From Carcharhinus amblyrhynchos (lineage: Eukaryota), in the NCBI GenBank assembly GCA_965287045.1, contig OZ336882.1:26536001-26600000 (forward strand): a stretch of 64,000 nucleotides of DNA. Reading direction: 5' to 3'. Positions 3,199 through 59,959 of this stretch are shown here, one piece after another (the stretch's first letter is position 1; the number at the start of each line of letters is the position of its first letter). The notes below the pieces were generated by a model. The model was given only the letters and a program-made list of their open reading frames with translations, had not been told where the DNA came from and ran no database searches. The position numbers and the translations under genes were made by a program.

Positions 3199-5040
3199 TG
3201 TCATGGATCTGCCTAATAACAGCAATAACAATAATTCAACAAGGCATGATAGGATGCAACCTGCCTAGGAAGAAACCTCTATACCAACAGCAGTAGCCAG
3301 CATTCAAAAGGCGTGACTTTCCTGGTAACAATATTAGCAATCCTCTAAAAGAACAGGTGTAAATCACCCTATTAATAGGAAACAGCTTCTCTAGATGACT
3401 GAGAGAAAAGTGGAGGTATACAAATGCTAATTTCTAGAGTCATGGAATTTGAGAGATGCAGACAGCCAAATCACAGAATGAAGAATCAAAGAGGGAAATG
3501 GTATAACTACCAGCACCTTCAGAAGCAGGCAGGCCAGTTTACTACTGCTGGGAGACTAGGCCCACACCTAAATCGTAGAATCAAGGCAGTACAGAAACCT
3601 TTGTAACGGCAGTTTAAATATCTTTGCTGGACCAGGAAAAGACATTCCTCAGGCTTGATCTTCAGCCTTGTATTGCATGGTAACCATGAGCTGGATTTAA
3701 TGGAAGTTGTTCGGGATGCCAGGGATCGTAGATAAATTTTAGAACCAGGAGTAATTTTTTTCATAAACTGTGGGTTCGATTTTACCATTGCGTCGTGTCC
3801 ATTTTCAGGTGTGAAAATGTGGTAAAGTCGGGCATGAGACCATTAACGTGATCCGTGCCCGCGTCACACAGGTGCTCACTGTCACAGAGGCCCGAAAATG
3901 GCTGCGATCCGATTCACGCCCGAAATGGGCACAACGGTGACTTAAATCCAATTGCATGCATTTAAATTGAATTAATGAACTGCCCGCCCATCTTTATCAG
4001 CATTTCACCCTATACCATCACATTCGCCCGTCCAGATTCGGCACAAAACAGACATGCTCAGCAAAGGTCTGTTTCAGGGACTCCAGCTTCCAACAGTTCT
4101 CTGACTCACATCGGTGGTGGGGGTGCGGGACGGAGGCAGGTAAGATCGTTCTCTGGTGTGGAGGGGGTGGGTGGGAGAAGGGAGGCCCGATCATTTTCTG
4201 GTGGGGGGAGGAAGGAGGAGGTGAGTCAGATATATCTCTGGTGGATGGGGAGGAGGGAGGACAGATTGCTCTCTGGGGGGGGGGCCAGATTTTTGTCTGA
4301 TTGGAAGGGTGGTAGGGGAGGCGAGCCTGATCATTCTCTGGTTGGGGGGGGGGGGCGGGGGGAGGAGTGCAGATAGTTGCCTGTTGGGGGAGGGAAGGCC
4401 GACCGTTCTCTGGGAAGAGGGGACAGGGGAGGTCTGCTGCTACTTTGCGGGTGATCGGTGGGGGTAAGGGGGATAGAGGGTCACGATCTGTCTGGATAGT
4501 GGGGGGTGGGGGGGATGAGTGGATTAGGGGGACAGTTATGTTGTGAGGATGGGGCGATGTCTGTGGGGGCCATCGCTCCTGCTTTTCACTCCCGGGCTGC
4601 TTTATCCGCTTTTGGCGGCCCCGGAGCGATGTGACAGCAACACAATTGTCAATTCTCTTTCTAACTGCGCACGCGCAGTTCAGAGGTCTGATCGTTTCGG
4701 GCGCGATAAGTCCCGCTCATAGCACAATTCAAACCCACGATTTTTGTTTCAGGCTGAGTGCTAATGGGGGCGCCTGAAAGCAGATTTTCAAGTTGGATCT
4801 GAATTGCACCCAGATTTAGCACTTAGAATGAAAGTGGTAAAATTGGGCCCAGTGTGTGTTTTTTGTGATTCTTACGCTTAATTATCTTTGAGTATCGTCG
4901 TCCTGTTCATGTGCATTTGTCTTTAATTTATTAAATGGTCTTCAGTAAATGTTATATGACGACTGAACTGGTTCTTTTCACTGGGACTCCTCACACCAGT
5001 CCAAAAACAAAGCTATAAACTGCCACGATCTGGTTGTGAC
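3199..5040 (+). mobile_element. Probable solo LTR interrupted by a Harbinger-like element
   Basis: Starts tgtcatg and ends ttgtgac, with LTR-like composition; no TSD verifiable. Confidence 0.35.
3772..4850. mobile_element. GC/CpG-rich non-autonomous PIF/Harbinger-like DNA transposon
   Basis: Imperfect TIRs gggttcgattttacca / tggtaaaattgggccc; internal G-rich degenerate tandem units (agatcgttctctggtggggg) at 4110-4520. Confidence 0.7.
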
Positions 5041-6667
5041 CAAAATGATACATGTCTTTTCTTCCTCAAACTGAACAAAGTTTTACCTGGATTTTTTTTT
5101 CCTCTGGGGATAAGCTATCATTAGCAAGTTTAACAGTGAACTGCATTCTAATGCATTGTACCACAAAACCACAAGCAAAACCTTAAAGCATTGACAAGAG
5201 ATAAGAAATGAGGAGTGGTCAGAATTAATGAAACATCTACTTATGTCCCGAAACAAACAGCAAAAATATAAAATCTGAAATATTGTAAGACAGTTTCAGT
5301 CAAAATCTCACAAAGTGTATTTTTAAACAATTCCTCCCAGCATTGGTCATAGTTAATTAGAAAAAAGGTTCAAAAGTTATATACAGCCTATACTAATCCT
5401 TAAATAACATTGTCTCATAATAGCCTAGAAACAATATGAAATACCTTCTGATTAAGACAAGGCTTTGTTGTTTTTTTTACATAAGTACATTTATTCTGAT
5501 TATATTAAAAGAATAAACATGTGAACTATTACATAATTTATCAAATTATTAATAGTTCACATGTTTATTCTTTTAATTTGGATCACCCTCACAGGTAACA
5601 TCAGCGTGATTTGTGACATAGACAACAGATTTTTCTGCAAAATAAGAATTACTGGGCAATATCATTGCTTAATTACTAAAATGAACCCAATTATAATTTT
5701 TTTACATACAGTTTACTATTAAGTTCACCATTTGCTGTGGAGAAGCAGAGGGCCATTTAAATTCAATCTCTTTTTATGCATGTTTTGTTCTTACGCTCTT
5801 TACATCAATGAATTTGACTGTAACTGGACCTGTCAGATTATAATGCAGGGATGGTTTCAATGACTCATTTTAAATGATTATGGACAATCTGCATTATCCA
5901 TCTTTCAATCCAGTGAGCAACACATTTTTAACACTGCAGTCCTTTAACCTTTCTAACAGTTAATCACCCAAGAAATCACGATCAATCATCTAGTGGTGAT
6001 TATCAAAGATTAATAAGTCGTAAATTTCCTATTACTAAATGGAGATTACTATGATATAGAACGTTTTAATCTGCATGGCCATTACTTGTAAGAAGTCATG
6101 CAACCATTCACAAATCCTCTAAGCTCTGACATTTATTGGCCATTAATTTTATGCAACCTTGATAAATTATGTAATAGTTCACATGTTTATTCTTTTAATA
6201 TAATCAGAATAAGTGTACTTATGGAAAAAAACAACAAAGCCTTGTCTTAATCAGAAGATATTTCATATTGTTTCTAGGCTATTATGAGACAATGTTATTT
6301 AAGGATTAGTATAGGCTGTATATAATTTTTGAACCTTTTTTCTAATTAACTATGACCAATGCTGGGAGGAATTGTTTAAAAATACACTTTGTGAGATTTT
6401 GACTGAAACTGTCTTACAATATTTCAGATTTTATATTTTTGCTGTTTGTTTCAGGAAATAAGTAAATGTTTCATTAATTCTGACCACTCCCCATTTCTTT
6501 TCTCTTGTCAATGCTTTAAGGTTTTGCTTGTGGTTTTGTGGTACAATGCATTAGAATGCAGTTCACTGTTAAACTTGCTAATGATAGCTTATCCCCAGAG
6601 AAAAAAATATCCAGGTAAAACTTTGTTCAGTTTGAGGAAGAAAAGACATGCATCATTTTGGTCACAA
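5034..6667. repeat. Long inverted repeat: arms 5034-5544 and 6159-6667, 614-bp spacer
   Basis: Arms are reverse complements along their whole length with only scattered substitutions. Confidence 0.97.
5720..6158. promoter_or_regulatory. Putative conserved non-coding/enhancer-like island
   Basis: Unique AT-rich sequence dense in homeodomain-type motifs (GTCGTAAA, TTTATTGG, GATTAAT, CTGTCA, TGACTCA). Motif-based inference only. Confidence 0.3.
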
Positions 6668-6714
6668 TGATATTGAATTCAATGATGCAGCTACACTTTA
6701 TATTACTGGAGAAA

Positions 6715-7090
6715 AGTTTTAACTAAAGTTGAGAAGGACAAAAGTAGGCCAAAGAGCAGAGAAAAACATTTGGGAAATGATGATTTTTAAGGGGATGAAG
6801 GTGGCATTCAGGAAACTAAACTGAGAAAATTTACTGACAAAAGAAATAGAACAGCAGTGGGAAATGCTTAAAACACTGAACACTGGGGTCCAGGGGAAAT
6901 ATATTCCACTAACAATCATAAACAAACCTGCCAGTAATGATATACCATGGACAAATAAAGAAACAAGATAAATAAAAGAAACAGGACGAGCACTAAATAT
7001 ATAGATAACAAAGGTGAGTTGGACAAAAAGGAAGTATGAAAATGTTAGAAATTAAGGAAGAACCAATTAGAAAGGCAAAGAGAAATTATA
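6715..7090 (+). mobile_element. Old CR1 ORF2 internal fragment
   Basis: Degenerate DFKGM...EIEQQWEMLK...VQGKYIP segment found just after the CR1 endonuclease. Confidence 0.65.
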
Positions 7091-7959
7091 CATTGTGCTA
7101 ATGGCCTGAGAGGCCACTTTCTGTGCTGTCATTGGCTGCGTGGATGGAATTCCACTCCAGCCCTACCCCAGAATGGGTTGGCAGGTGGGTGGGCCAGGGG
7201 CTATACAATCGGCTGCCACAGCCGATTTCACCTGGCACCCACACCACGAGGCGTGGATAACTCCAACGTTTTGATTAAGCACCAGATGACAAGCTGTGCA
7301 CAGAGGGAAGAGGCAACTTAAGATACTCAGGAAATACCTCTACCTCTAACCCAACCAAAAGCAGTGTCTGAAGCAGCTAAAGCTGCTCATGTTGAGTTAT
7401 TTCAATAACCCCACTTCATGCAGATATTTGTAAAGCCCTGCTCGTCATCACACCTCCTTACTCCACCTCGCCCACTTTTAACCACTTTCCATCCCCCTTA
7501 CCCTCTCAGTCACTCACCTCTCTTTGTCCCTGCTCACTACTGTCATCTTCCTCACCCGTTCTGCACAGCCTTATCCTATTAACTCCCCCTTACCTACCCT
7601 CCCGGTATCCACTTGGTATGTGGAGCTCATGAGCCCTATAATAACACGTAGAAGTCCTTGAGAAGCTTATAATCTGTCAAAATATACAAACATAACTTGA
7701 AGGGATGCTTGAAAAATATCCTCTTAAAATTTAATAAATCTGTCAAAAACAAATCCATACTCCCCTGCACAACTGTGTAAGCAAACCCTGGAGTACAGAA
7801 TCCATTAAAGTTTAGAAAGCAGCCAAACCATCATTCCCAGCACAGTTGTGCGAACAAAACTAGCAGTTCAAAGTCCATTAGTGGTTTGGACGGAAGCCAA
7901 ACTGAAGGCTGTTCTGTAAATAATAAATGAAAACATCTGTGAAACAGCCAAACAAAGAC

Positions 7960-9770
7960 TATGGCATAAAAGCGAATTACTTGAGGATGCTGCAATCTGA
8001 AACAAATATAGAAAATGCTGGAAAATCTCAGCAGGTCTGACAGCATCTGTGGAGAGAGAATAGAACTAACACTTCAGGTGTGAATAATCCTTTGTCAGAG
8101 CTGAAGACAATAAATAAATAAGGTGATAGTTATACTGTATGGACAAGGGGAGAGATGGGGATTGACAAAGATGTCATAGACAGGAAGACAAAGGGAATGT
8201 AAATGGTGGTGATCATTGCTAAGAAGGGTGCTGATAGCGGCCTATTAAGAGATCAGACTCTGTAATTGGCAGGACAAAGATAAGCTGAGTATCAAAGGAC
8301 AACCTAGAGCAGGTAACAGAGAACCTCTAATGGAGCTGAGGGAGGGGAGACTGTAGTGATGGAAGGTGAGAGGTGGAAAAATGAAATGATGGAAGAAATT
8401 GAAGTAAATTTAAAAACTAATCAATTCAATGCAATAAAACATAGAAATGGGGTGATGGTGGAGGAGAGGGTTTGTGCTCTGAAGTTGTTGAACGCAGTGT
8501 TTAGTTCGGGAGGCTCTAAAGTGTCTAATTGGAAGATCAGGTGCTGCTCCTCCAGTTTGCATTGGGCGTCCCTGGAACATTATAATTGGCCAAGGCGGAC
8601 ATGCGGACAGGAGAGCACGATGGCCTGTTAAAATGGCTTGCGGATGGACTGAAGGTGTTCTGCAAAGCAGTCACCCAGTCTGCATTTAGTTCTCTCTGAT
8701 ATAGAGCAGACCACATTGGAAGCAGGGAATGCAATAGAACAGATTGAAGAAGATGCATGTGAAACATCACTTCACCTGAAACAAATGTTTAGACTCTTGG
8801 ATGGTGAGCAGGAAGGAGGTAAAGGGGCAGATGGTACATTTTCTGTAATTGCATGGGAAGGTGCCATGGGCAGGGGATGAGGTGTTGGGTGGATGAAGGA
8901 GTGGACCAGGGTATCCCAGAGGGAACAGTCCCTGCAGAATGCTAAAGATGAGTGAGGGGAAGGTGTGTTTGGTGGTGGCAGCATGCTGGAATTGGCAGAA
9001 ATAGTGGAGATGATTCTTCGAATGTGGAGGCTGGTGGGGTGAAAAGTGAAGACAAGGGGGACCCTATCCTAGTTTCTGGGGAGGGAGGGGAGGAGGTGAG
9101 AGCAATGGTGCTAGATGGGTCAGACACCGTTGCAAGTCCTGTCAGCCACAATGGGTGGGGAACCACGATTAAGAAGAAGGAAGACATATTGGCAGCACCA
9201 TTTGGAAAATGGCATCATCGGAACAGATACAATGGAGATGAACATAAGAAATAGGAATTGAGAGAATAGGATGGAGTCCTTCCAGGACGTGAGGCATGAA
9301 GAGTTGTAGTCAAAGTAGCTGTGGGAGTCGGTGAGCTTGTAATGGAAACAGAGAAGTCAAGGAAGGGAAGTGTCGGAGGTGTAACACATGAAGGTGATAG
9401 AGGGGTGGAAATTGGAAGTAGGATAGATCACTTTTTCCACGTCCAGACGAGAGCATGAAGTAGCAAATAAAAAGTCATCGATGTACGGGTAAAAGAGTTG
9501 TGGGAGGGGACCGGAGTAGGACTGGAACAAGGAATGTTCCACATACCCCATAAAGAGACAGGCATAACTAGGACCCATGTGAGTGTCCTTAGCTCCACCC
9601 TTCATGTAGAAGAAGTGAGACAAGTTAAAGGAGAAATTGATGAGCGAGAGGACCAAGTTCAGTCAGGTGTAGAGTGGTGGTGGATGGGGATTGAGGAAGA
9701 GGCAGCGAGCTCTCAGGCCATCCTGGTGGGGAATGGAGGTAGAGGGATTGGACATACATGGTAAAGTGGA
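7960..9770 (-). mobile_element. Penelope-like element, family 2 (RT C-terminal half, GIY-YIG, pseudo-LTR), decayed
   Basis: ORF 9357-9656 has G...THMGPSYACLFMGYVE...YIDD (PLE RT). Segment 8660-8780 encodes NLFYCIPC..CGLLYIRE-like GIY-YIG. Terminus gatgctgtcagacctgctgagattttccagcattttc. Confidence 0.9.
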
Positions 9771-11844: not shown

Positions 11845-12127
11845 TTGTTGGGGAGACACCACTTTAACCTGTGCTTAACCCCCTCTCTACTCACATTGTC
11901 TGTACCTGTAAAGATTTGATTACCTGTTAAGACTTGCATTCCAACCATTATCTCGTAATTGAGTTTGTGTCTACATATGCCCTGTTCGTGAACCCGGGTT
12001 TCCTCACCTGAAGAAGGAACAGTGCTCCAAAACTCATGCTACCAAATAAACCTGTTGGACTTTAACCTGGTGTTGTGAGACTTCTTACTGTGCTTACCCC
12101 AGTCCAACGCCGGCACCTCCGCATCAC
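11845..12127 (+). mobile_element. Penelope family 1 pseudo-LTR with tail
   Basis: Matches 35785-36080; degenerate hammerhead at 12005-12038. Confidence 0.85.
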
Positions 12128-14867: not shown

Positions 14868-17800
14868 AACCACGATTTTCCCAAAATAATTCTTACGTGT
14901 CCAACAGGTGGGAAAATGGAAAGTTTCCTTGCTCGTTTTTGGATGAGCTGAGTTAAATTAATTTATGGTACTCTAAATGTATTTATGGCCATAGTATTAG
15001 AGGATTCGAAGGAGGGATGTTTGTTGAGTGTATTCAGGAAGAATTTCTTATTCAGTATGTGGATGACTTGACTAGAGAAGGGGCAAAACTTGACCTCCTC
15101 CTGGGAAATAAGAAAGGGCAGGTGACAGAAGTGTTAGTGAGGGATCACTTTGAGACCAGTGACCATAATTCTATTAGTTTTAAGATAGATATGGAGAATG
15201 ATAGGTCTGGCCCAAAAGTTAAAATTCTAAATTGGGGCAAGGCCAATTTTGATAGTATTAGGCAGGAATTTTCAAAAGTTAATTGGGGGAGTCCTTGGGA
15301 AGGCAAAGGGATATCTGGTAAGTGGGAGACTTTCAAAAGTTTGTTAACCAGGGTTCAGGGTAAGCACATTCCTCTTAAAGGGCAAGGTTGGTAGAAGTAG
15401 GGATATTGAGGCCCTGGTGAAGAAGAAGAAGGAGGGTACATGACATGCACAGGCAGCTGGGATCAAATGAATCCCTTGAAGACTATAGGGAGTGCAGGAG
15501 TGGAGTTAAGGGAGAAATCAGGAGGGTAAAAAGGAGATGTGAGATTATTTGGCAGAATCCAAAGAGATTCTATAAATACATAAAGGCCAAAAGAGTAACA
15601 ATGGAGAGAGTAGGGCCTCCTAAGAATCAACAAGGTCATCTATGTGTGGATCAATAAGAGATGGGTGAGATCCTAAATAATATTTCTCAACAGTACTCAC
15701 TGTTGAGAAAAGCATGGATGTCAGGGAAGTTGGGGAAATCAATAGTGATGTCTCGAGGAATGAACATATAACAGAGAAGACTTAAAGCGCATCAAGGTAG
15801 ATAAATCCCCGGGACTTGATGAAGTATATTCCAGGACATTGTAGGAGGTTAGGGAGGAAATTGCAGGTCCCATAGCAGAGATATATGATTCATCAATAGT
15901 CATAGGTCAGATACCTGAAAATTGGAGGGTGGCAAATGTTGTGCTTTTGTTGAAGAATGGCTGCAGGGAAAAGCCTCGGAACTACGGGCCAGTGAGTCTC
16001 ATACCCATGGTGGGTTTGTTGTTGGAAGGTATTTGAGAGACAGGATCTACAGGTATTTAGAGGCACAAGAACTGATTAGGAACAGTCAGCATGTCTGTGA
16101 GTGGAAAATCGTGCCTCACAAATTTGATTGAGTTTTTTGAAGAGATAACAAAGAAGGTAGATGAGGGCAGTGCAGTTGATGTTGTCTACATGGACTTTAG
16201 CAAGGCCTTTGACAAGGTACCACATGGTAGGTGGTTGCATAAAATTAAATCTCATAGGATCCAGAGCGACGTAGCCAAATTGATACAAAATTGGCTTGAT
16301 GACAGAAGCTAGAGGGTGTTGTAGAGGGTTGTTTTTCAAACCAGAGGTCTGTGGCCAGCGGTATGCCTCAAGGATTGGTTCTGAGTCCCCTGTTATTTGT
16401 CATTTATATTAAAGATTTGGATGAGAATATAGGAGGCATGGTTAGTAAATTTGCAGTTGACACCAAGATTGGTGGCATAATGGACAGTAAAGAAGGTTAT
16501 CTCAGAATGCAGTGGGAACTTGATCAATTGGGCCAGTGGGCTGATGAATGGCAGATGGAGTTTAATTTAGATAAATGCGAGGTGATGCATTTTAGTAGAT
16601 TGAATCAGGGCAGGACTTACTCAGTTAATGATAAGGCGTTGGGGAGAGTTACAGAACAAAGAGACCTAGGGGTACAGATTCATATCTCCTTGAAAGTGGA
16701 GTCACCGATGGATAGAGTGATGAAGAAAGTATTCAGCATACTGGGCTTCATTGGTCAGAACACTGGATACAGGAGTTGAGATGTCTTGTTGAAGTTGTAC
16801 AAGACATTGTTAAGGCCACACTTGGAATACTGTGTACAGTTCTTGTCACCCTATTATAGAAAGGATATTATTAAACTAGAAAGAGTGCAGAAAGACTTAT
16901 TAGAATGCTACTAGGACTTGTTGGTTTGAGTTATAAGGAGAGGCGGGATAGACTAGGACTTTTTTCTCTGGAGCATAGGAGGCGTAGGGGTAATCGTAAA
17001 ATAATGAGGGGCATAGATCAGCTAGATAGTCAGTACCTTTTGCCAAAGACATAGCTTTAAGGTAAGAAGGGAAAGATACAAAAGGGTTCAAAGGGTCATT
17101 TTTTTCACACAGAGGTTGATGAGTGTCTGGAACAAGTTGCCAGAGGTAGTAGTAGATGCAGGTACAATTTTGTCTTTTAAAAAGCATTTAGACAGTTATA
17201 TGGATAAGATGCGATTAGAGGGGTATGGGCCAAATGCAGGCAATTGGGACTAGCTTAGGGGCGTGAAAAAAAGGGCAGCATGGACAAGTTGAGCCGAAGT
17301 CCTGTTTCCATTCTGTAAACCTCTGTAAATCTATGACTCACCCCGATCACCAATTCACCCCCTGTCCGATCTCCTCCCAACCCCCCCATCCTTCCGACAT
17401 CCCTGACACCCCCTTCTCCCAGATATGGACAGTCTGAACCCCTCCACAGCTGCATGGCTGGCCCCCATCTCTGTCCCCTGAAGCAGAGTTTCCCATTTCC
17501 TTCCCCTCCTACTTTCCCAGGTCTCGCTCTGCCCCCATCTGCCCCTGTGATGCTCTAACCCCTTGGCACAACCCGGTGCCTGATGAACAGTACCTGTGCA
17601 CCAGGCTGGCACTACCAGAGTGCCAGGCTGGCAGTGTCATGCTGCCAGTGCCCTGACCCCCCAGGGAGCCTCAATGGCTTCTGTTCCCAGCAGTGAGGCC
17701 ATCACATCAGTTCCCCATTGCTGGGGACCATCTGTGATCCCTGCTGGTGTGGACTTGCACTGGCGAGATCAGAAATCCAAATAAGCCTGGACAATAGAAT

Positions 17801-23697: not shown

Positions 23698-23803
23698 ATG
23701 ATGTGGAGATGCCGGTGTTGGACTGGGGTCGGCACAGTAAGAAGTCTCACAACAAAGCCTAACAGGTTTATTTGGTATAATCTGCGTGCTCCTTCATCAG
23801 GAA
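23698..23803 (-). mobile_element. Penelope family 1 terminal fragment with partial hammerhead
   Basis: atgatgtggagatgccggtgttggactgggg...gtaagaagtctcacaac...gctccttcatcagg. Confidence 0.85.
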
Positions 23804-33143: not shown

Positions 33144-34730
33144 CTACAGGGATTTATAAGAATGAGGCTCCTTTCAGAGATATCTCTTCCTGAGTTTTAC
33201 ATACATCTCACCAACATATCTGAAAACATATATTAGCTATTAGCATTGTGATTAACACGTTATACGACATCTCTCTCTAAATCTTTCACTCTATTCAATA
33301 AACTACTCTTGAACTCTTTACTCATCTTACTCAACCCCACTCCAGCCTGAATAATTTATGCCAGTGACGTTAATCTGCAACTGTGTTCTTGTCTCTCTTA
33401 GAGGATGTGTAGCACGTTTGTTTTTCCTGAAACACATTAAATCAGTAGTCAGAAGTTGCTGTTTCTGGGGGTGTGTGGCATAAAGGTAGTGAATGGACAT
33501 TCTCTTTTGTCTTTCTTCTTCTTTGTCATTGTACGCCCTTTTGACGTCATGCTGCTGGGATCATCTTTCTTGAAGGAATGAGCCTTGGTCATCTTAGCAT
33601 CCTGCTAATCTCAACAAGAACATTTGGCATTCAATGATGTTGCCCTTAAGCTGCAACTGCTTACCTCTGTCCAACCTAATCATGCTGGATGAAAAAGCCA
33701 TATATCAATGAATTCACAATGAGTCAAACTCAGATGACATGAAATTTCGGGTTCTGTTGAAGTTCGAAACCAATCCCACTGACAAATAGTAAATTCCATA
33801 GAATGAAGTCCGTGATAAGCCAACATTCTGCCCTGATAACTCTAAATTAGTTGAACTTGATTGGCCTATGACCATGTTGATGTATTTGAGCAGAGTTAGA
33901 CTGCCTGCCCATCCTCCTGGCTCCCTGGCCAATGCTGTAGAGATGCTCTGCGATTTTGAACTGCAACATACAAACATTGAAAATATGTTTGACCGCCTTA
34001 CTGACTTATATGATATGCTGTATTACACACAGATGAGGACACATGCTGAGCAGTAAACGATTACATTGTTTTTCCAGAGCTAACTCTCCATTGTTCCAAT
34101 GAAAAGCTCTGACCTTTTACAAGGTGGGCTATTGTAAGGTGTGAAGAGATTGGATAATTTGTTTCTTTGCTGTCTTTTCATTTAGAATTTAAATCCATTG
34201 TTTTTGACAGAGAGCTGCATTTGTAGGCAAGTCAGGCTATTTAAAGATGCATTAATGTGGGGATTTTGGAGCCTCCTCAGCTATCAGGAAGCTTCACTTA
34301 ACACAAATTTGTGGGTGGATCTCCTGGGAGTTGACTCATTGGGATTTTACTGTCTGTTTAGAAATATGCTGTAGATACTTCCAGCTTAGTGTGTGTTGAC
34401 ATTCATTGTCACTAAGCAAAGACAGCGAGCACAATAACATTTGCTCCTTCTCAGGCTTGACTCAAAGAATTAGGTTCCAGATGAAACTAGCTTCCGTGCA
34501 TATCTGTGATTCACACAGCCTGTTGAGTCATCAATTTCACTGCCTCTACCTCACAGCTCTCCGAAAACTAGCCCAGAATCACCCTGAAACTTCCGATTCC
34601 TGCCCATCCGAGCTTTCAAATCCCTGGATTTTGATATTCCCCCCATCCCCACAAAACCTTCTATGTTGCCACGTGTTGTTGAGATAGATTTTTTTTCATT
34701 CATGGGCTTCGCTGGCTGGCCAGCGTTTAT

Positions 34731-36081
34731 TGTAAGAAGTCTCACAACACCAGGTTGAAGTCCAGCAGGTTTATTTGGTAACAAAAGCCACTAGCTTTCA
34801 GAGCGCTGCTCCTTCATCAGGTGAGTGGGAGTTCTGTTCACAAACAGGGCATATAAAGACACAAACTCAATTTACAAATAATGGTCAGAATTTACAGGGA
34901 ATCAAGTCTTAAAGGCATAGACAATGTGAGTGAGAGAGTGTTAAGCACAGGTTAAAGAGATGTGTGTTGTCTCCAGACAGGACAGTTAGTGATATTTTGC
35001 AAGCCTAGGCAAGTCATGGGGGTTACAGATAGTGTGATGTGAATCCAAGATCCCGGTTGAGGCCATTCTCATGTGTGCAGAACTTGGCTATCAGTCTCTG
35101 CTCAGCGACTCTGCATTGTCATGAAGGCCACCTTGGGGAATGCTTACCCGAAGATCAGAGGCCGAATGCTCGTGACCACTGAGGTGTTCCCCAACAGGAA
35201 GAGAGCATTGATGAAGAGAAACATCTCACCAAGGCCATCCCCACACCCCCACTTCTTGCCTTCAAACAACCGCACAGCCTCAAACAGACCATTGTCCGCA
35301 GCAAACGACCCAGCCTTCAGGAGAACAGTGACCACGACACCACACAACCCTGCCACAACAACCTCTGCAAGATGTGCCGGATCATCGACATGGATGCCAT
35401 CATCTCATGTGAGAACACCATCCACCAGGTACACGGTACATACTCTTGCAACTTGGCCAATGTTGTCTACCTGATATGTTGCAGGAAAAAATGTCCCAAG
35501 GCATGGCACGCTGGGGAGACCATGCAGATGCTGCGACAATCACCTGGCAAGGGTGTTCTCTTCCTGTTGGGGAACACTTCAGCGGTCATGGGCATTCGGC
35601 CTCTGACCTTCGGGTTAGCATTCTCCAAGGTGGCCTTCACAACTCACAACAACCAGAGTCGTTGAACAGAGACTAATAGCCAAGTTCCGCACGCATGAGG
35701 ATGGCCTCAGGGGATCTTGGGTTCATGTCACACTATTTGTAACTCCCACGACTTGCCTGGACTTGCAAAATCTCACTAACTGTCCTGTCTGGAGACAATA
35801 CACATCTGTTTAACCTGTGCTTAACGCTCCCTCCATTCACATTGTCTGTTCCTTTAAGACTTGATTCCCTATAATGACTCGCATTCCAACCATTATTTTG
35901 TAAATTGAGTTTGTGTCTTTATATGTCCTGTTTGTGAATAGAACTCCCACTTAACTGACGAAGGAACAGTGCTCCAAAAGCTAGTAGCTTTTGCTACCAA
36001 ATAAACCTGTTGGACTTTAACCTGGTGTTGTGAGACTTCTTGCTGTGTTTACCCCAGTCCAATGTTGGCATCTCCACATCA
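34731..36081 (+). mobile_element. Penelope-like element, family 1: inverted pseudo-LTR (34731-35210) plus sense GIY-YIG/pLTR (35211-36081) with ~38-nt tail
   Basis: PPLLAFKQPHSLKQTIVRS, CHNNLCKMC, YSCNLANVVYLICC..CPKAWHAGET, PVGEHFSGHGHSASDLRVSILQGG; left part is the reverse complement of 35555-36043. Confidence 0.93.
34789..34823 (-). ncRNA. Minimal type I hammerhead ribozyme motif (Penelope-associated)
   Basis: Minus strand CAC-CUGAUGA-A-GGAGC-AGC-GCUCU-GAAA-GC-UA-GUG: intact catalytic core, stem II hairpin, palindromic AGCU stem III, 3-bp stem I. Confidence 0.75.
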
Positions 36082-38730: not shown

Positions 38731-39229
38731 CTAACCCTGCTCTCACATTTGACCCTGATATGATCTTCTGCCCTCAAATCTTCATCATCACAAAGTCCAT
38801 CTATGTCCAGCTCCGTGACATTGTTCAAACTCAACCCCTCCTCAGCTCATCGGTTACTGAAAACATTATCCGTGCCTTTATTAGTATCTAGGCTTTACTC
38901 CAATGCCCAGCCTCCCACCTTTCACCCTTCATAAATTTAAACTCATTCTCTGCTTTCCACATCCGATAAGTATATCACCTCTGTACTGGTGCATTACACT
39001 CTTCATCCAGCAATGTCTCAGTTTTAACATTCTCATCCTTGTTTTCAAATCCATCCATGACCTTGTTTCTCCCCATCATTGTAAACTCCTCTAGCCATGG
39101 AGCTTTGAGGCCTTTGCACAGATCTCTGCATTCCTCCAATTCTGATCTCTTGTGTATTCCCTATTCAAATCACACAATAGTGTGGCAGCTCTGCTTTCTG
39201 GTGCCCAACGTCTGGAATTTCCTCTTTTA

Positions 39230-39890
39230 CCCTCTCTATCTCCCTCACCCCCTCTGCCTCTCTACCTTCCTCACCCTCTCTGCCTTTCTCCCTCCTGCAC
39301 TCTCTCTAGATCCCTCACCCTCTCCCTATCTCTCTACCTCCCTCACATTCCCTGCCTTTCGATCTCCCTCACTCTCTCTGCCTCTCTATCTCCCTCACTC
39401 TCTCTGCCTCTCTATCTCCCTCACTCTCTCTGCTTTTCTACCTTCTGCACCCTCCCTAGATCCCTCACCCTCTCTCTATCTCTCTACCTCCCTCACCTCT
39501 CAGCCTCTCTACCTCCCTCACCTTCCCTGCCTCTCTACCTCCCTCGCCCTCTCTGTATCTCTCTACTTCCCTCACCCTGTCTGCCTCTCTACCTCCTTTG
39601 TCCTCTCTACCTCTCCAGCTCCCTCACCCTCTCCGCCTCTCAACCTCCTTCACCCTCTCTGCCTCTCTACCTCCCTCACCCCCTTCCTTTCTCCCTCCCT
39701 CATCCTTTCAGCCTCTTTACCTCCCTCACCCTCTCTGCCTCTCTCCCTCCCTCATCCTTTCTGCCTCTCTCCCTCCCTCACCCTCTCTGCCTCTCTCCCT
39801 CCCTCACCCTCTATGTCTTTCTACCTCCCTCACCCGTTCTGCCTCTCTACCTCCTTCGCCCTCTCTGCCTTTCTCTCTCTCTCTCCTCCT
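39230..39890. repeat. Polypyrimidine minisatellite, ~26-bp unit ctctctgcctctctacctccctcacc
   Basis: Direct inspection; nearly purine-free plus strand. Confidence 0.95.
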
Positions 39891-40813
39891 TCAAAAATGT
39901 CCCTTTAAAAAATACCGAGGTGAGTATTTATTTTGGATATCTCTCCCGTAATATCCCCTTCTGTGGGTCAGTGTCAGATTTTGTTTTACAATTTTCAAAT
40001 TCAAAGATATTTTACTGATCTAAGAGTGTATATTATTCCAAGTTGTCGTCATAGGAACATTTTTATTTGCAATTACTTCTAGTTAAATGCAAATTATATG
40101 ATTCCTTTTACTTCAAAAACCTCTGTTCAAACCCAAATTAGACTGACAGAATACAAATACTTTTACTGATCTGGCATTAATCTTGCTGTTGTCTGTAAAA
40201 AACTGAGGTGACATTAAATGATGAGATTTGTAGTAATGATGAACACTGTGTCATTCGGGACAAGTTGCTGGATGGATGGTATTGTGTTGTGCTCTGGTTC
40301 AATGCAGCAGTGAGATTTCCTTTCTTTCTGATCAATTCCTTCTTCACTGATGTGAATCTTAACCCCTTCTGCAGACAAGACTTAGCCGTAGCTCAAGTGC
40401 TGTGTTATTTCCTTCCCTTATAATCCAATCAATAACCTTTCACGTGGACGTGGCAGATTTTGATTGAAGGAGCAGATGGGACAAGGTGGAGATTTAATTG
40501 AAATTCCTTTATAAAACAAAATAGCATTCAGAAAAGAAAACACTGATAATAGGACCCTGCTGCATAGATCAACTCTCTTCCGAATGTTTCTTCAGGTTCT
40601 TATCCAGCCTTAATTATATATCATAACTTAAATTATGTAGCTGCCACCCTGCACCCAGGGGGCTGTGAAATTCAGCTCTAAATCATTATCTAAACCAGGC
40701 CAATAAACACAGTCTCGGGCTTTGGATTTCATTGTGACTATTCCAGAGTGTTCAGTGTAGAGTTCTGCCAGACTGCTATCTCTAGAAGCTAGGTACCACC
40801 ATTCTATGGTTTT

Positions 40814-41160
40814 GGGAGATGATGGCCTACTGGTATTATCACTAGACTATTAATCCAAAAACTTCTGAGGACCCGGGTTCGAATCCTGCTGTGGCAGATG
40901 GTGAAATTTGAATTCAATAAAAAGCAACTGGAATTAAGAATCTACTGATGACCATGAAACCATTGCTGATTGTTGGAAAAACCCATCTGGTTCATGAATG
41001 TTCTTTCGGGAAAGAAGTCTGCTGTCCTTACCTGGTCTGGCCTACGTGTGATTCCAGAGCCACAGCAATGTGGTTGACTCTCAACTGCTGGCAGCTAGGG
41101 ATGAGCAATAAATGCTAACCCACCAGTAACACCCATGGCCCACAAATTAATAAAAAAAAC
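40814..41160 (+). mobile_element. SINE family B
   Basis: Head gggagatgatggcctactggtattatcactagac, B-box ggttcgaatcc, tail. Confidence 0.9.
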
Positions 41161-43924: not shown

Positions 43925-44187
43925 CACTTTACCAGTATAACTGTGATTATCCTTCTCTCCACTCACACTGTTTGAACCTGTAAAGATTTGATTACCTGTA
44001 AAGACTTGCATTCCAACCATTCTTCACGTTCCATTCTGTTACTATCTTGCAATTGTGCCGTTATCTATATATGCTGTGTTTGCGAACCTACCTCCACTCA
44101 CTTGATGAAGGAGCAGTGCTCCGAAAGCTCATGATTCCAGATAAACCTGTCGGATTTTAACCTGGTGTTGTGAGACTTCTTACTGTA
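43925..44187 (+). mobile_element. Penelope family 1-related pseudo-LTR with hammerhead motif (44099-44133)
   Basis: cacttgatgaaggagcagtgctccgaaagctcatg followed by aaacctgtcggattttaacctggtgttgtgagacttcttac. Confidence 0.85.
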
Positions 44188-48257: not shown

Positions 48258-48477
48258 GATATTGTGGAGATGCTGGTGTTGAACTGGGGTGGGCACAGTA
48301 AGAAGTCTCTTCCAATACCAGGTTAAAGTCTAACAGGTTTATTTGGTATCACAAGCTTTTGGAGCGTTGCTCCTTCATGAGGTGAGTGAATCACCTGATG
48401 AAGGAACAGGGCTCCAAAAGTTTGTGATACCAAATAAATCTGCTGGACTTTAACCTGGCATTGTGAGGCTTCTTACA
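48258..48477. mobile_element. Penelope-derived inverted mini-element (hairpin) with a degenerate hammerhead on each strand
   Basis: 48298-48384 is the reverse complement of 48391-48477; only the left arm carries the ~38-nt tail. Confidence 0.9.
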
Positions 48478-49709
48478 ATGGTAAGATGGGAATGGGGAGA
48501 ATAAGAGAAGTTTGCAACACCATTCAAAAAAAACTAAAGAAGTAGAAAACATGCAATGTGTTTGAGTGGGATGTTGATCCACCAGGAGGAACCCTTCAGT
48601 TGTAGGCAATAAAATAAAACAAGACTTACTCCAAATTATAAATCAAAGGAAAATGTTTAATAATGAAACTTCATTACTCTAACTCTTGAGGCCACGCCCT
48701 GGGGTATTCCAAGCTCCCATAAACCCTGTCAGCTGACCACCACATCATTTTGTCATTGGTTACATAGTTTACTGGGTCAGCTGACCTTAACAGCATGTTA
48801 CCATTGGGCACATTACAACAGATCCAATGTTATAATTGGTTTCAATCAAACACGGTGATTTTCATTGTAACTTAATTGCAGTGTGAACGTAAGCCTGCTT
48901 GTGACTAATAAATAAACTTTACTTTTAACTTGGGACATTGTGGACATTGGAGTGATAAACTGAAAGGGGTAGTGAAAAGATGAGCGTAATCTGAGAAGAC
49001 CAGAGATAGGAGCAGAACAACAAACATGCTTGTGGACTGATAATGTTGATGGAGGCACCAAGGTTCAAAACTCAGTGGGGTACTGGGAAAGCATGTAAAA
49101 AATCAATCACAAGGAGGAGGGAGTCAACAAATAAAAGGAGAGTTGCCTCCCTATAGCAAGGGAAGAAGAGAAAGGACCTGTGATTGGAGAATCTGGGTCA
49201 TTATACTGGCTGATCCCAAAGTTTCCACCCGGATGAGGGAGAACAGGGTGGGAGGAAGAAGCAGGGGACCTCACTCAATGGCACGCTACACGAACCATGG
49301 CTGCAGTGCCTGAGTTGGGGGTTTGGGAGATCCTGGCCGAGACTCAGAGGATGAACAGGCCAGGGATGAGAATCCCGGTGGGAGAAAAAAGCAGCAGGAG
49401 GTGCAGACAGAGGCAAAGGAGATAGAGAAAGAATGGGGCCTTCAACTGGATGAATGCAGCTGTTTAGCTGTAAAATTCTTTAAAGACACCAACACCTTGG
49501 CCTGCAGGCAGACTGCAAAGGAGCATTGGTTTTGACCTTCTTTACAACATGGAGCCGGGGCAGAGCCACATTCAGAAACAGAGGCATTTGGAATGTTTTC
49601 TGCACCACATTAAGGGCAGTGGTGAATGGTTCAAGCAATACACAATCTCAAGGAAGTTATGGCTGTCTGGTGAATTGATGGTGGTGCTGTTGGTGCTGTT
49701 GGCTATGAT

Positions 49710-58138: not shown

Positions 58139-58332
58139 ATGATGTGGAGTTGTTGGTGTTAGACTGGGATAGGCACAGTAAGTAGTCTCACAACACCAGG
58201 TTAAAGTCCAGGTTTATTTGGTAGCACAAGCTTTCGGAGTGCTGCTCCTTCATCAGGAGCAGTGCTGAAGTGACTCACCTGATGAAGGAGTGGCACTGTT
58301 GGACTTTAACCTGGTGTTGTGAAACTACTTGC
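58139..58332. mobile_element. Penelope-derived inverted mini-element with hammerhead motif (58225-58259, minus)
   Basis: Minus strand CUC-CUGAUGA-AGGAGCAGCACUCC-GAAA-GCUU-GUG; right arm internally deleted. Confidence 0.87.
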
Positions 58333-59959
58333 TGAATGATCATTATAGGCTGGCAGTTTATGCTATTAAGATGAGGTGTGAGAGGTAGAGTGGTATGAGT
58401 TGGGGTTTTGTGGCTGAGACTGGGGTAGGTGAAACCCAATGGTTTTATGTAAGTGCAACTGGCTGCCACTGGAGCCAATGGCTACTCCCTTTGCACATGA
58501 CCAGTTACACCAGCGATTGCAATTTGAACTGAGGTATAAATTGAAAATGACAGGCAATTTGTTCAGATTGTAGCACATAACAAAAAAAATCACAATTCCG
58601 ACTTTACTTATTCTTTGCTGTGTTATTTTTTTCATCTTGAGATTGATGTTCTGTATTTTAAATTCGGTTTCTGGTGCCAGGTATCATTAGTTTTGCCATT
58701 AAATAGTGTCTGTAGCTTGTCATGATCAATCTTATAGTAACTCAAAGATGTATTTGTATTCCAACTTCTGCCATTATTTATGCTCTCCTCCCCATATGGC
58801 TGTCCACTCTAATATTCTTTCTCCCGCAGCCGGCAGGATTAACTTCTCCACAGCTGACATGAGGAAAGACGTAGGCGCTGAATGATCTTCAGGACAGGCT
58901 AGTGGAAGAAGGTCTTTGCTAGCTGCAGGGTTCGGCTGAAGTTGGGAGTTGTGTCACCTTGATTCTGACTGGGGCCTTCACACAAACTAGCTGTAAATCA
59001 GCACACACAGATACAGGTCAGTACTACAGAGTATGGAGAGTGCAGAATGATTGCTGATGGAAATAAAGAACATTTAGTGAATATTATAAGGGCCAACCAT
59101 TTAAGGTATTGATTTCAACTCCCTTTGTTTAGTGGAAGTCAAGCAGAGGGGGGCAGTTTAAATGGAGGGGGGGACTTGCCCACTCTTTCACTGCTGACCA
59201 CCCCACCACAATCTAGATACCTCTAATCTAAAGCTGAAAATGACAACAGCGCTCACCCAAGTTGGCTGGATCCCCACTAAGTCAAGCTCCAGTGATATTT
59301 TTGGAGCTTGAGCTACAATTTTACACTGGGGCCTGAGCAGGAGAGTAGTAAGGTAGCTTCCCCTGTAGGCCAGATATGGGGGTTAGGGCTGTAAGAGGCC
59401 CAGAAAGGGACTTCTAAATGATTTTCTTCTGTTTTCTTGTGCAGTAGGAGGAACAGAGGTGCCATCCTTTTTCTGGGCTTTCTATGCCTTCCTGATGGGA
59501 ATTCTCCTTCAATAGTGCTCCAATAGATCAACCTGAATCAGATCAACTGCCCAGTTTACACTCTGTCATCTTTTAATTCCCATTAACTTTATCTGATCCA
59601 ATCCTGTCAGTGCCACTAGGCAGTGTTAAGGTAATATTAATATAGTGCCCACTACCAAAATGAAATAGTAATATCATTGCAGAAAAAAAATACTATTGAA
59701 ATATGGTTTAGAAGTAAAAAAGAGACACGGCAATATGTGCAAATACCAATGTTGGTATATGATGGAGAGGTAATAGAGCAGCTTATCCTTTACCTTTAAC
59801 AAGTTTATTCTCAATACAGGACAGTAGCACTTACATGAAGCCACCCACCACCTGTCCATCGACAACTGTTCCAGCTGTGTCCATTTATACTGTTTTGGAT
59901 GTTCAGTCCTTAACAAAGCGTTAGCTTAACAATGTAATTGTCAAAGCATGCACTTGTTG

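Follow-up and report, generated by a model that had tools for sequence, protein, structure and literature searches.

A minimal hammerhead motif in an old Penelope-like insertion of a shark genome, likely an inactive passenger

The window, the whole 64-kb stretch of shark DNA analysed here, carries on its minus strand at 34789-34823 a motif that we identify with high confidence as the minimal hammerhead of a Penelope retrotransposon, Neptune-like in type. The insertion around it is old and truncated at its 5' end, and the motif likely persists there as an inactive passenger under neutral decay.

The motif and the insertion that carries it

Read on the minus strand from 34823 to 34789, the sequence is CAC CUGAUGA A GGAGC AGC GCUCU GAAA GC UA GUG, exactly as an earlier note had it. 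That note's description as a minimal type I hammerhead holds, with the full core, the extra base and stems I-III all located. Parts are listed here as read from the sequence, all on the minus strand and numbered after PMC4209133.

34789..34823, minus: minimal type I hammerhead
34823-34821, minus: 5' strand of stem I
34820-34814, minus: CUGAUGA
34813, minus: extra A after A9
34812-34800, minus: stem II with closing pair G10.1-U11.1 and a 3-nt loop
34799-34796, minus: GAAA
34796-34793, minus: loopless palindromic stem III, AGCU
34792, minus: A17
34791-34789, minus: 3' strand of stem I
34791..34792, minus: predicted cleavage site after U16.1-A17, from the consensus (core definition in PMC3088659)

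The core (C3 U4 G5 A6 N7 G8 A9, G12 A13 A14 A15.1, U16.1 H17) is complete, and the consensus predicts a cut between 34792 and 34791. Stem I consists of CAC/GUG with one U-G added in the fold, for 3-4 pairs, and its end is open, making the type I form. Stem II has five pairs, one of them the wobble G10.1-U11.1, which replaces the canonical closing pair and retains pairing. The G10.1-C11.1 pair is rated highly conserved (PMC4209133, PMC3088659), so the word "intact" in the earlier note is right for the core bases and wrong for this pair, decayed here to G-U. U11.1 is the other product of the same CpG decay that gives G12A. A G10.1-U11.1 wobble may lower the cleavage rate; no rate for it was found in the papers available.

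Taken by itself the motif is unremarkable. Its single-copy fold is no better than that of shuffles (z = 0.45), a scan with Rfam, whose library misses this minimal form, matched no hammerhead family at E<=5, and a loose hammerhead pattern gave seven matches against 1.38 expected, five belonging to an unrelated repeat and two to this motif. Since fold and Rfam do not separate 34789-34823 from chance, the reality of the motif rests on its family.

The motif lies in one arm of a composite structure at 34733-36081, with the following parts.

34721..34732, plus: left target-site duplication, 10 of 12 bases shared with the right one
34733..35207, minus: 5'-inverted, tail-less arm with the end of the endonuclease region and a pLTR (arm alignment)
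35208..35742, plus: broken C-terminal remnant of a Penelope ORF (CX4CXXC linker, GIY-YIG-type motif)
35743..36081, plus: 3' pLTR with AATAAA near 36000
35952..35986, plus: sister hammerhead with G12A and further changes, predicted inactive from sequence and fold
36042-36081, plus: 40-nt tail, as described for Penelope elements (PMC11167929, 10.1101/2021.04.23.441226, PMC3846280)
36080..36091, plus: right target-site duplication, 10 of 12 bases shared with the left one

Inverted and forward arms are 86% identical over 490 columns. In the ORF remnant the RT part is missing, the later His pair lies in another frame, and the stop is at 35740-35742. The layout is that of EN+ Penelope elements: pLTRs, an inverted 5'-truncated copy, a tail on one arm and a target duplication. 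We conclude that 34733-36081 is one truncated Neptune-like Penelope insertion with a target duplication of ~12 bp; it interrupts another dispersed repeat. The pseudo-LTR proposed in the earlier note as the home of the motif is thus borne out by pLTR, endonuclease remnant, tail and target duplication together. A dimer in cis is not available to the motif: its sister hammerhead at 35952 is encoded on the other strand and has no G12.

All eight further motifs named in the earlier note are present: 12005(+), 35952(+), 44099(+), 48350(-), 48392(+), 58225(-), and the partial 23785(-) and 58275(+). The nine motifs are spread over six insertions, half of them solo and half two-armed and inverted; each two-armed one has a tail on one arm only and a target duplication of 11-13 bp. 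Besides 34733-36081, the sequence gives the following.

11863..12126, plus: solo pLTR copy with tail; motif 12005 with G12A
23699..23803, minus: short solo copy that has a tail and a target duplication and lacks the 3' half of its motif
43941..44186, plus: solo tail-less copy; motif 44099-44133 with C3U and G1.1A
48263..48478, both arms: two-armed inverted insertion with 11-bp target duplication; both motifs with G12A, 48350(-) also with G5C
58140..58334, both arms: two-armed inverted insertion with ~13-bp target duplication; motifs 58225(-) and 58275(+)

Loss of GAAA by CpG decay, another point of the note, is seen as G12A in four of the seven full-length motifs (12005, 35952, 48350, 48392). 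The same-strand motifs nearest to 34789-34823 are 11 and 13.5 kb off, and both are broken. At 58275(+) the motif is internally deleted. The motif at 58225(-), named in the note as another possible self-cleaver, has an intact core and keeps G10.1-C11.1, but its stem I is broken, and an inverted stub just upstream is predicted to form a competing 8-bp hairpin with CUGAUGA in the loop (-17 kcal/mol), making it a poor candidate.

Several other features of the window were recorded. On the strand opposite the motif's 5' end, 34818-34826 (+) reads CAG/GTGAGT, which we take to be the textbook splice donor consensus; the many other copies whose stem I begins in this way would carry that donor in antisense as well. 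Arms of 383 nt at 5095-5477 and 6225-6607, inverted, 98% complementary and 747 nt apart, have the appearance of a young element with long terminal inverted repeats. A minisatellite of ~26-nt units at 39218-39910 has long open frames and no Pfam match. An abundant SINE with a tRNA-like head, presumably akin to the shark HE1 SINE, occurs at 2481, 11447, 25115, 26576, 27804, 49708 and 59952 and in inverse copies (families D2 and D8).

The parent element and its family in the genome

Relatives of the ORF remnant were sought across the genome, giving 28,206 candidates, of which 150 were scored. One family ORF of 707 aa (L077) has an RT match (Pfam RVT_1, E 4e-10), a CX4CXXC linker, also seen in the window frame, and, by eye, a GIY-YIG-type motif and CCHH residues. 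Pfam GIY-YIG did not match this ORF; it is annotated on several homologues. A CX2-5CxxC linker between RT and EN is a feature of Neptune, common with Nematis (10.1101/2021.04.23.441226). Linker and GIY-YIG-type motif together indicate an element of the Neptune/Nematis type.

The shark origin asserted in the earlier note is supported by the closest named proteins, which are shark proteins at 84-91% identity. These five (P0001-P0005) come from Heptranchias, Scyliorhinus and Mustelus, which are distant shark lineages; such high identity would reflect either slow evolution or horizontal transfer. A further shark protein (P0033), annotated as an epn2 isoform, holds a piece 86% identical to the element's ORF, to be read as either exonisation or an annotation artefact.

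Same-strand pairs of hammerheads occur elsewhere in the genome. L259, near 1.57 Mb of G000:C1, is a young tandem element whose two hammerheads, identical and on the same strand, are separated by 3,014 nt that include a broken ORF; its span of 3502-9227 runs through inverted arm, partial pLTR, ORF and pLTR. The element is near full length, its arms are 97-100% identical, and an ATG follows right after the tail, ~97 nt past the cut. In L268, same-strand hammerheads at 4305 and 7328 (+), 3,023 nt apart, are of different stem II types with long frames between them, possibly a tandem of two subfamilies.

The genome-wide descriptor search suggested in the earlier note revealed a large family: the core with a 10-12 nt spacer had at least 38,550 core-intact matches in the 2.92-Gb genome and one in the reversed control. 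Fully canonical copies of the window's stem II type numbered 1,520 (control 0). The window's exact 35-mer was found 121 times, 120 of them at other loci.

Covariation was examined in 173 copies with intact cores, from loci selected without regard to stem II. Pair 10.2-11.2 was G-C in 111 and A-U in 52, pair 10.3-11.3 was G-C in 130 and A-U in 28, and the closing pair 10.1-11.1 was G-C in 144 and G-U in 26. These are counts of copies, not of events, and they reduce to about three stem II haplotypes and two or three independent compensatory changes. Pair 2.1-1.1 was formed in 160 of the 173. The extra nucleotide after A9 was A in 171 of the 173, the search having demanded one base there, and stem III pair 15.2-16.2 was G-C in 169, both positions being free in the search. 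An A-C mismatch variant of stem I has also been amplified (27/173), making strict selection for cleavage less convincing. Covariation of stem II between subfamilies suggests that master elements likely kept this stem under selection.

To gauge decay we read 95 copies, taking as anchor the 3' flank typical of the window's subfamily, which had 3,636 exact matches. The core was kept in 27 of them, and seven were fully canonical. Mismatches were compared at non-CpG core positions in the 39 copies that align without gaps. A first comparison put the core at 18/351 (5.1%) and the flank at 119/1365 (8.7%), p = 0.027; in the final one the core at 18/351 equals the flank at 50/975, both 5.1%, an equality reached only after removal of seven distal and three subfamily-diagnostic flank columns. 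At the C11.1-G12 CpG, 51 copies gave TG 18 times, CA 15, CG 17 and another outcome once, the window copy being TG. Loss of the general base G12 (CA) was as frequent as the mild change (TG; p = 0.73), so G12 loss was not purged. These comparisons indicate that inserted copies decay neutrally, the core at the rate of the flank. Of the conservation and covariation that the earlier note looked for in the family, stem II covaries between subfamilies, and the core shows no excess conservation in inserted copies.

Copy ends and fold-back junctions

If cut RNA were copied, insertions should begin at G1.1. We mapped 5' ends in 192 copies, of which 94 belong to the window's subfamily and 98 to a younger group (10,099 anchors). 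Six of the 192 (3.1%, interval 1.2-6.7%) began 0-6 nt upstream of their anchor, no excess at the cut site; neighbouring 7-nt bins held 5-15 each. Ends near the cut were then enriched by patterns that exclude the core's AAA. For the window's subfamily these gave 12, 7, 10, 12, 10, 11, 4 and 13 ends at offsets 0-7, a flat distribution (p = 0.50), and 22 of 79 ends at the cut or one base before it against 19.75 expected (p = 0.32). These figures come from 100 listed of 190 matches, with 21 internal deletions left out, tallied by eye with the first 30 rows checked by script. In about 15-20 of the 100 listed rows the cleavage site is gone, lost to one recurrent short internal deletion that runs between two GCT repeats.

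We considered whether transcription starts peak sharply at the 5' edge of the motif and rejected this, as there was only a broad bump, with 15 ends in the 35-41 bin against 5-10 elsewhere. Both 34855-34824 (-) and L259 6074-6121 have an initiator-like CCCACT shortly before stem I and, ~29 nt before that, a TATA-like TTTATAT. From this TATA-like/initiator-like pair, transcripts may start at the front edge of the ribozyme.

Where copies fold back on themselves, the junctions follow palindromes, and the arms usually include bases from before the cut. Of 105 tight fold-backs found, 50 were listed, and by eye 32 of these centre on AAGCTT, the stem III palindrome; the remainder comprise six cut-adjacent, six at TCGA, three at CGCG and three complex. 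Among 100 listed of 481 matches in the young group, tight fold-backs occurred at an ATAT palindrome, 8 nt downstream of the cut, in ~14 insertions and next to the cut in seven, with ~2 other ends at the cut. In six of those seven cut-adjacent cases among the matches listed, the two spacer nucleotides are the same as those that precede the cut, showing that the template had been read past the cut. Most of eleven inspected fold-back loci have one tailed arm and short flanking duplications and therefore look like separate insertions. L333-L346 are small palindromic insertions centred on the stem III AAGCTT, with one tailed arm and short target duplications. Since a second palindrome nearby is also favoured, palindromic microhomology likely explains the tight junctions. 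Rotifer elements, too, have palindromes at inverted junctions (PMC3846280).

Read-through of the cut fits both uncut linear templates and circles that were cut and re-ligated, the latter being the template modelled in PMC4209133. The few junctions near the cut are poor proof of cleavage in vivo. Read-through and palindromic junctions agree with in-vitro work on a lizard element, the PAc hammerhead of Anolis carolinensis, for which cleavage was protein-assisted, the ribozyme was dispensable for insertion in vitro, and no RNA-seq ends lay at the cut (PMC11167929).

The reading we prefer runs as follows. In full tandem elements such as L259, two same-strand hammerheads flank the ORF; joined through their AGCU palindromes they would form a double hammerhead, which would cleave the tandem transcript to unit-length RNA. 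Cutting would probably be slow and helped by the element's protein, as the literature and the covariation of stem II between subfamilies suggest. Reverse transcription probably starts at the tail and, by the copy ends, usually crosses the cut site; with the cut site read across, productive templates are likely uncut or re-ligated. Two cDNA arms would then be joined by microhomology. The window copy has no same-strand partner and has lost G10.1-C11.1, and in a read-through RNA it is predicted to be base-paired to its antisense sister arm.

The strongest competitor, which we judge unlikely though deserving of some weight, is that the hammerhead is kept as a structural or sequence signal (a protein site, a transcript 5' end or an arm-joining palindrome) and that catalysis is incidental. 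It would accommodate the lack of excess starts at the cut, the centring of 32 of 50 listed tight junctions on AAGCTT, and the amplified stem I mismatch variant; ribozyme mutants inserted normally in vitro (PMC11167929), and Naiad elements flourish without hammerheads (10.1101/2021.04.23.441226). On the other side, circular re-ligated templates would also cross the cut, and the ATAT palindrome is likewise a junction hot spot (~14 insertions per 100 rows listed), so that palindromic microhomology suffices. A signal alone accounts poorly for catalytic bases that stay while the letters and loops of stem II vary. C3, G5, A6, G8, A9, G12, A13 and A14 are common to all recurrent stem II types seen; the search patterns fixed the core, but the loci of the decay set were found by protein.

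More doubtful is a double role for stem III, as ribozyme pairing and as favoured site for joining cDNA arms copied from never-cut or re-ligated templates. If true, the palindrome would be kept partly for integration, which would explain ribozymes that are universal in pLTRs and yet barely cleave.

Whether the window copy could cleave, and known systems

The earlier note had supposed that this copy could still self-cleave if transcribed, for example within a host intron. That suggestion fares badly: the insertion offers no same-strand partner, the motif is predicted to be buried in a hairpin, and the core decays at the flank rate. In the predicted fold of a 1,421-nt minus-strand read-through RNA, 31 of the 35 nt pair with the antisense sister arm and stem II has probability 0.0. 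This is an equilibrium prediction; since minus-strand transcription reaches the sister arm ~1.1 kb before the motif, folding kinetics could differ from it. As a homodimer the window copy scored -11.1 kcal/mol in the double-hammerhead form, against -21.7 for the inactive dimer and -14.4 for two monomers; a natural G-C copy scored -16.3 and -25.5 for the double-hammerhead and inactive dimers, all in a secondary-structure model that ignores tertiary contacts. In published work on minimal hammerheads, monomers did not cleave and dimers did so weakly (PMC4209133), and eight of nine tested Xenopus retrozyme dimers did not cleave (10.64898/2026.07.22.740005).

Scanning 239 frames against Pfam brought no host exon to light. 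The scan covered 230 of the 233 unmasked frames of >=50 aa, eight other window frames and one control (L259 RT), a scope that a gene could escape if its exons are short or its intron long. It matched the L259 RT control, an RT fragment in the window at 16303-16776 (+) (RVT_1, E 1.2e-10) and, weakly and below cut-off, an integrase zinc-finger at 40631-40846 (-). In run X1, ~1.5% different in the unique flanks, no contig spanned the insertion.

It is very improbable, then, that the window copy works, that is, that a minus-strand transcript from a host intron or lncRNA is cut with trans pairing or protein help and a host RNA is thereby affected. Every catalytic core base is there, stem I has 3-4 pairs and stem II five with one wobble, and the genome holds tens of thousands of potential partners with the AGCU palindrome; protein-assisted cleavage is on record for the lizard element (PMC11167929). 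With no core mutation by the criteria of PMC3088659 and a G-U wobble that need not be fatal, a forced dimer may cut. Set against this are the missing selection signal on inserted copies, the identical 35-mer at 120 other loci with the core kept in 27 of 95 under neutral decay, the predicted hairpin burial, with inactive dimer and monomers scoring better than the double hammerhead, and the blank exon scan. We regard 34789-34823 as likely an inactive passenger without a host role. Chance resemblance inside a repeat, which the missing Rfam match and the shuffle-like monomer fold might suggest, is almost inconceivable given that all four hallmarks listed in PMC4209133 are matched (core, extra base, G10.1-C11.1 in the family, palindromic 15.2-16.2), that stem II types are compensatory and that the motif sits in a pLTR, and it is refuted by the covariation of the family.

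The locus itself, one decayed copy among tens of thousands, carries little weight. The family is a resource on the role of Penelope hammerheads, with young tandem elements, covarying stem II types and many readable template ends.

Among known systems, the Penelope min-HHRs of Cervera and De la Pena (2014; PMC4209133) are closely alike: type I, without loop 3, with a palindromic 15.2-16.2, the extra base at 9/10.1, G10.1-C11.1 in the family and a short stem I, in many solo copies and opposite-strand pairs of high variability. Stem II is 4-5 bp here and 7-8 bp in Schistosoma, and the window copy departs from the min-HHR consensus in its G-U at 10.1-11.1. The 38,550 matches here stand beside ~9,000 counted for Xenopus and ~4,000 for coelacanth, figures obtained with a different descriptor and so not strictly comparable. 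Supplement file 2 of that paper does not contain "shark", "Callorhinchus" or "Leucoraja".

Animal non-LTR retrozymes (10.64898/2026.07.22.740005) likewise have type I hammerheads of Penelope origin, and one chondrichthyan genome is among those carrying them. They are same-strand, non-coding tandem repeats, whereas the window's copies are solo or inverted and 34733-36081 has coding remnants. Beyond the retrozymes of that one chondrichthyan, we found no direct description of a shark Penelope hammerhead in the accessible parts of this literature, and the preprint's supplements may name a shark family. The motif is of a known kind, in a shark for which we found no direct published description.

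Poseidon PAc (Frangieh et al. 2024; PMC11167929) also has its hammerhead in the pLTR, with tail ends marking RT starts, and uncut RNA is its main substrate, which fits the read-through in the shark family. PAc belongs to another clade, and its ORF begins in stem II, while in L259 the ATG follows the tail. Closest in build are the EN+ Neptune/Nematis Penelope elements (10.1101/2021.04.23.441226, PMC3846280), and against what these sources make available of them we found no structural difference. They share the order of RT, CX2-5CxxC linker and GIY-YIG, 5' truncation, the inverted tail-less arm, a 30-40-nt tail on one arm, the short target duplication, an ORF start at the pLTR/tail and palindromes at inverted junctions.
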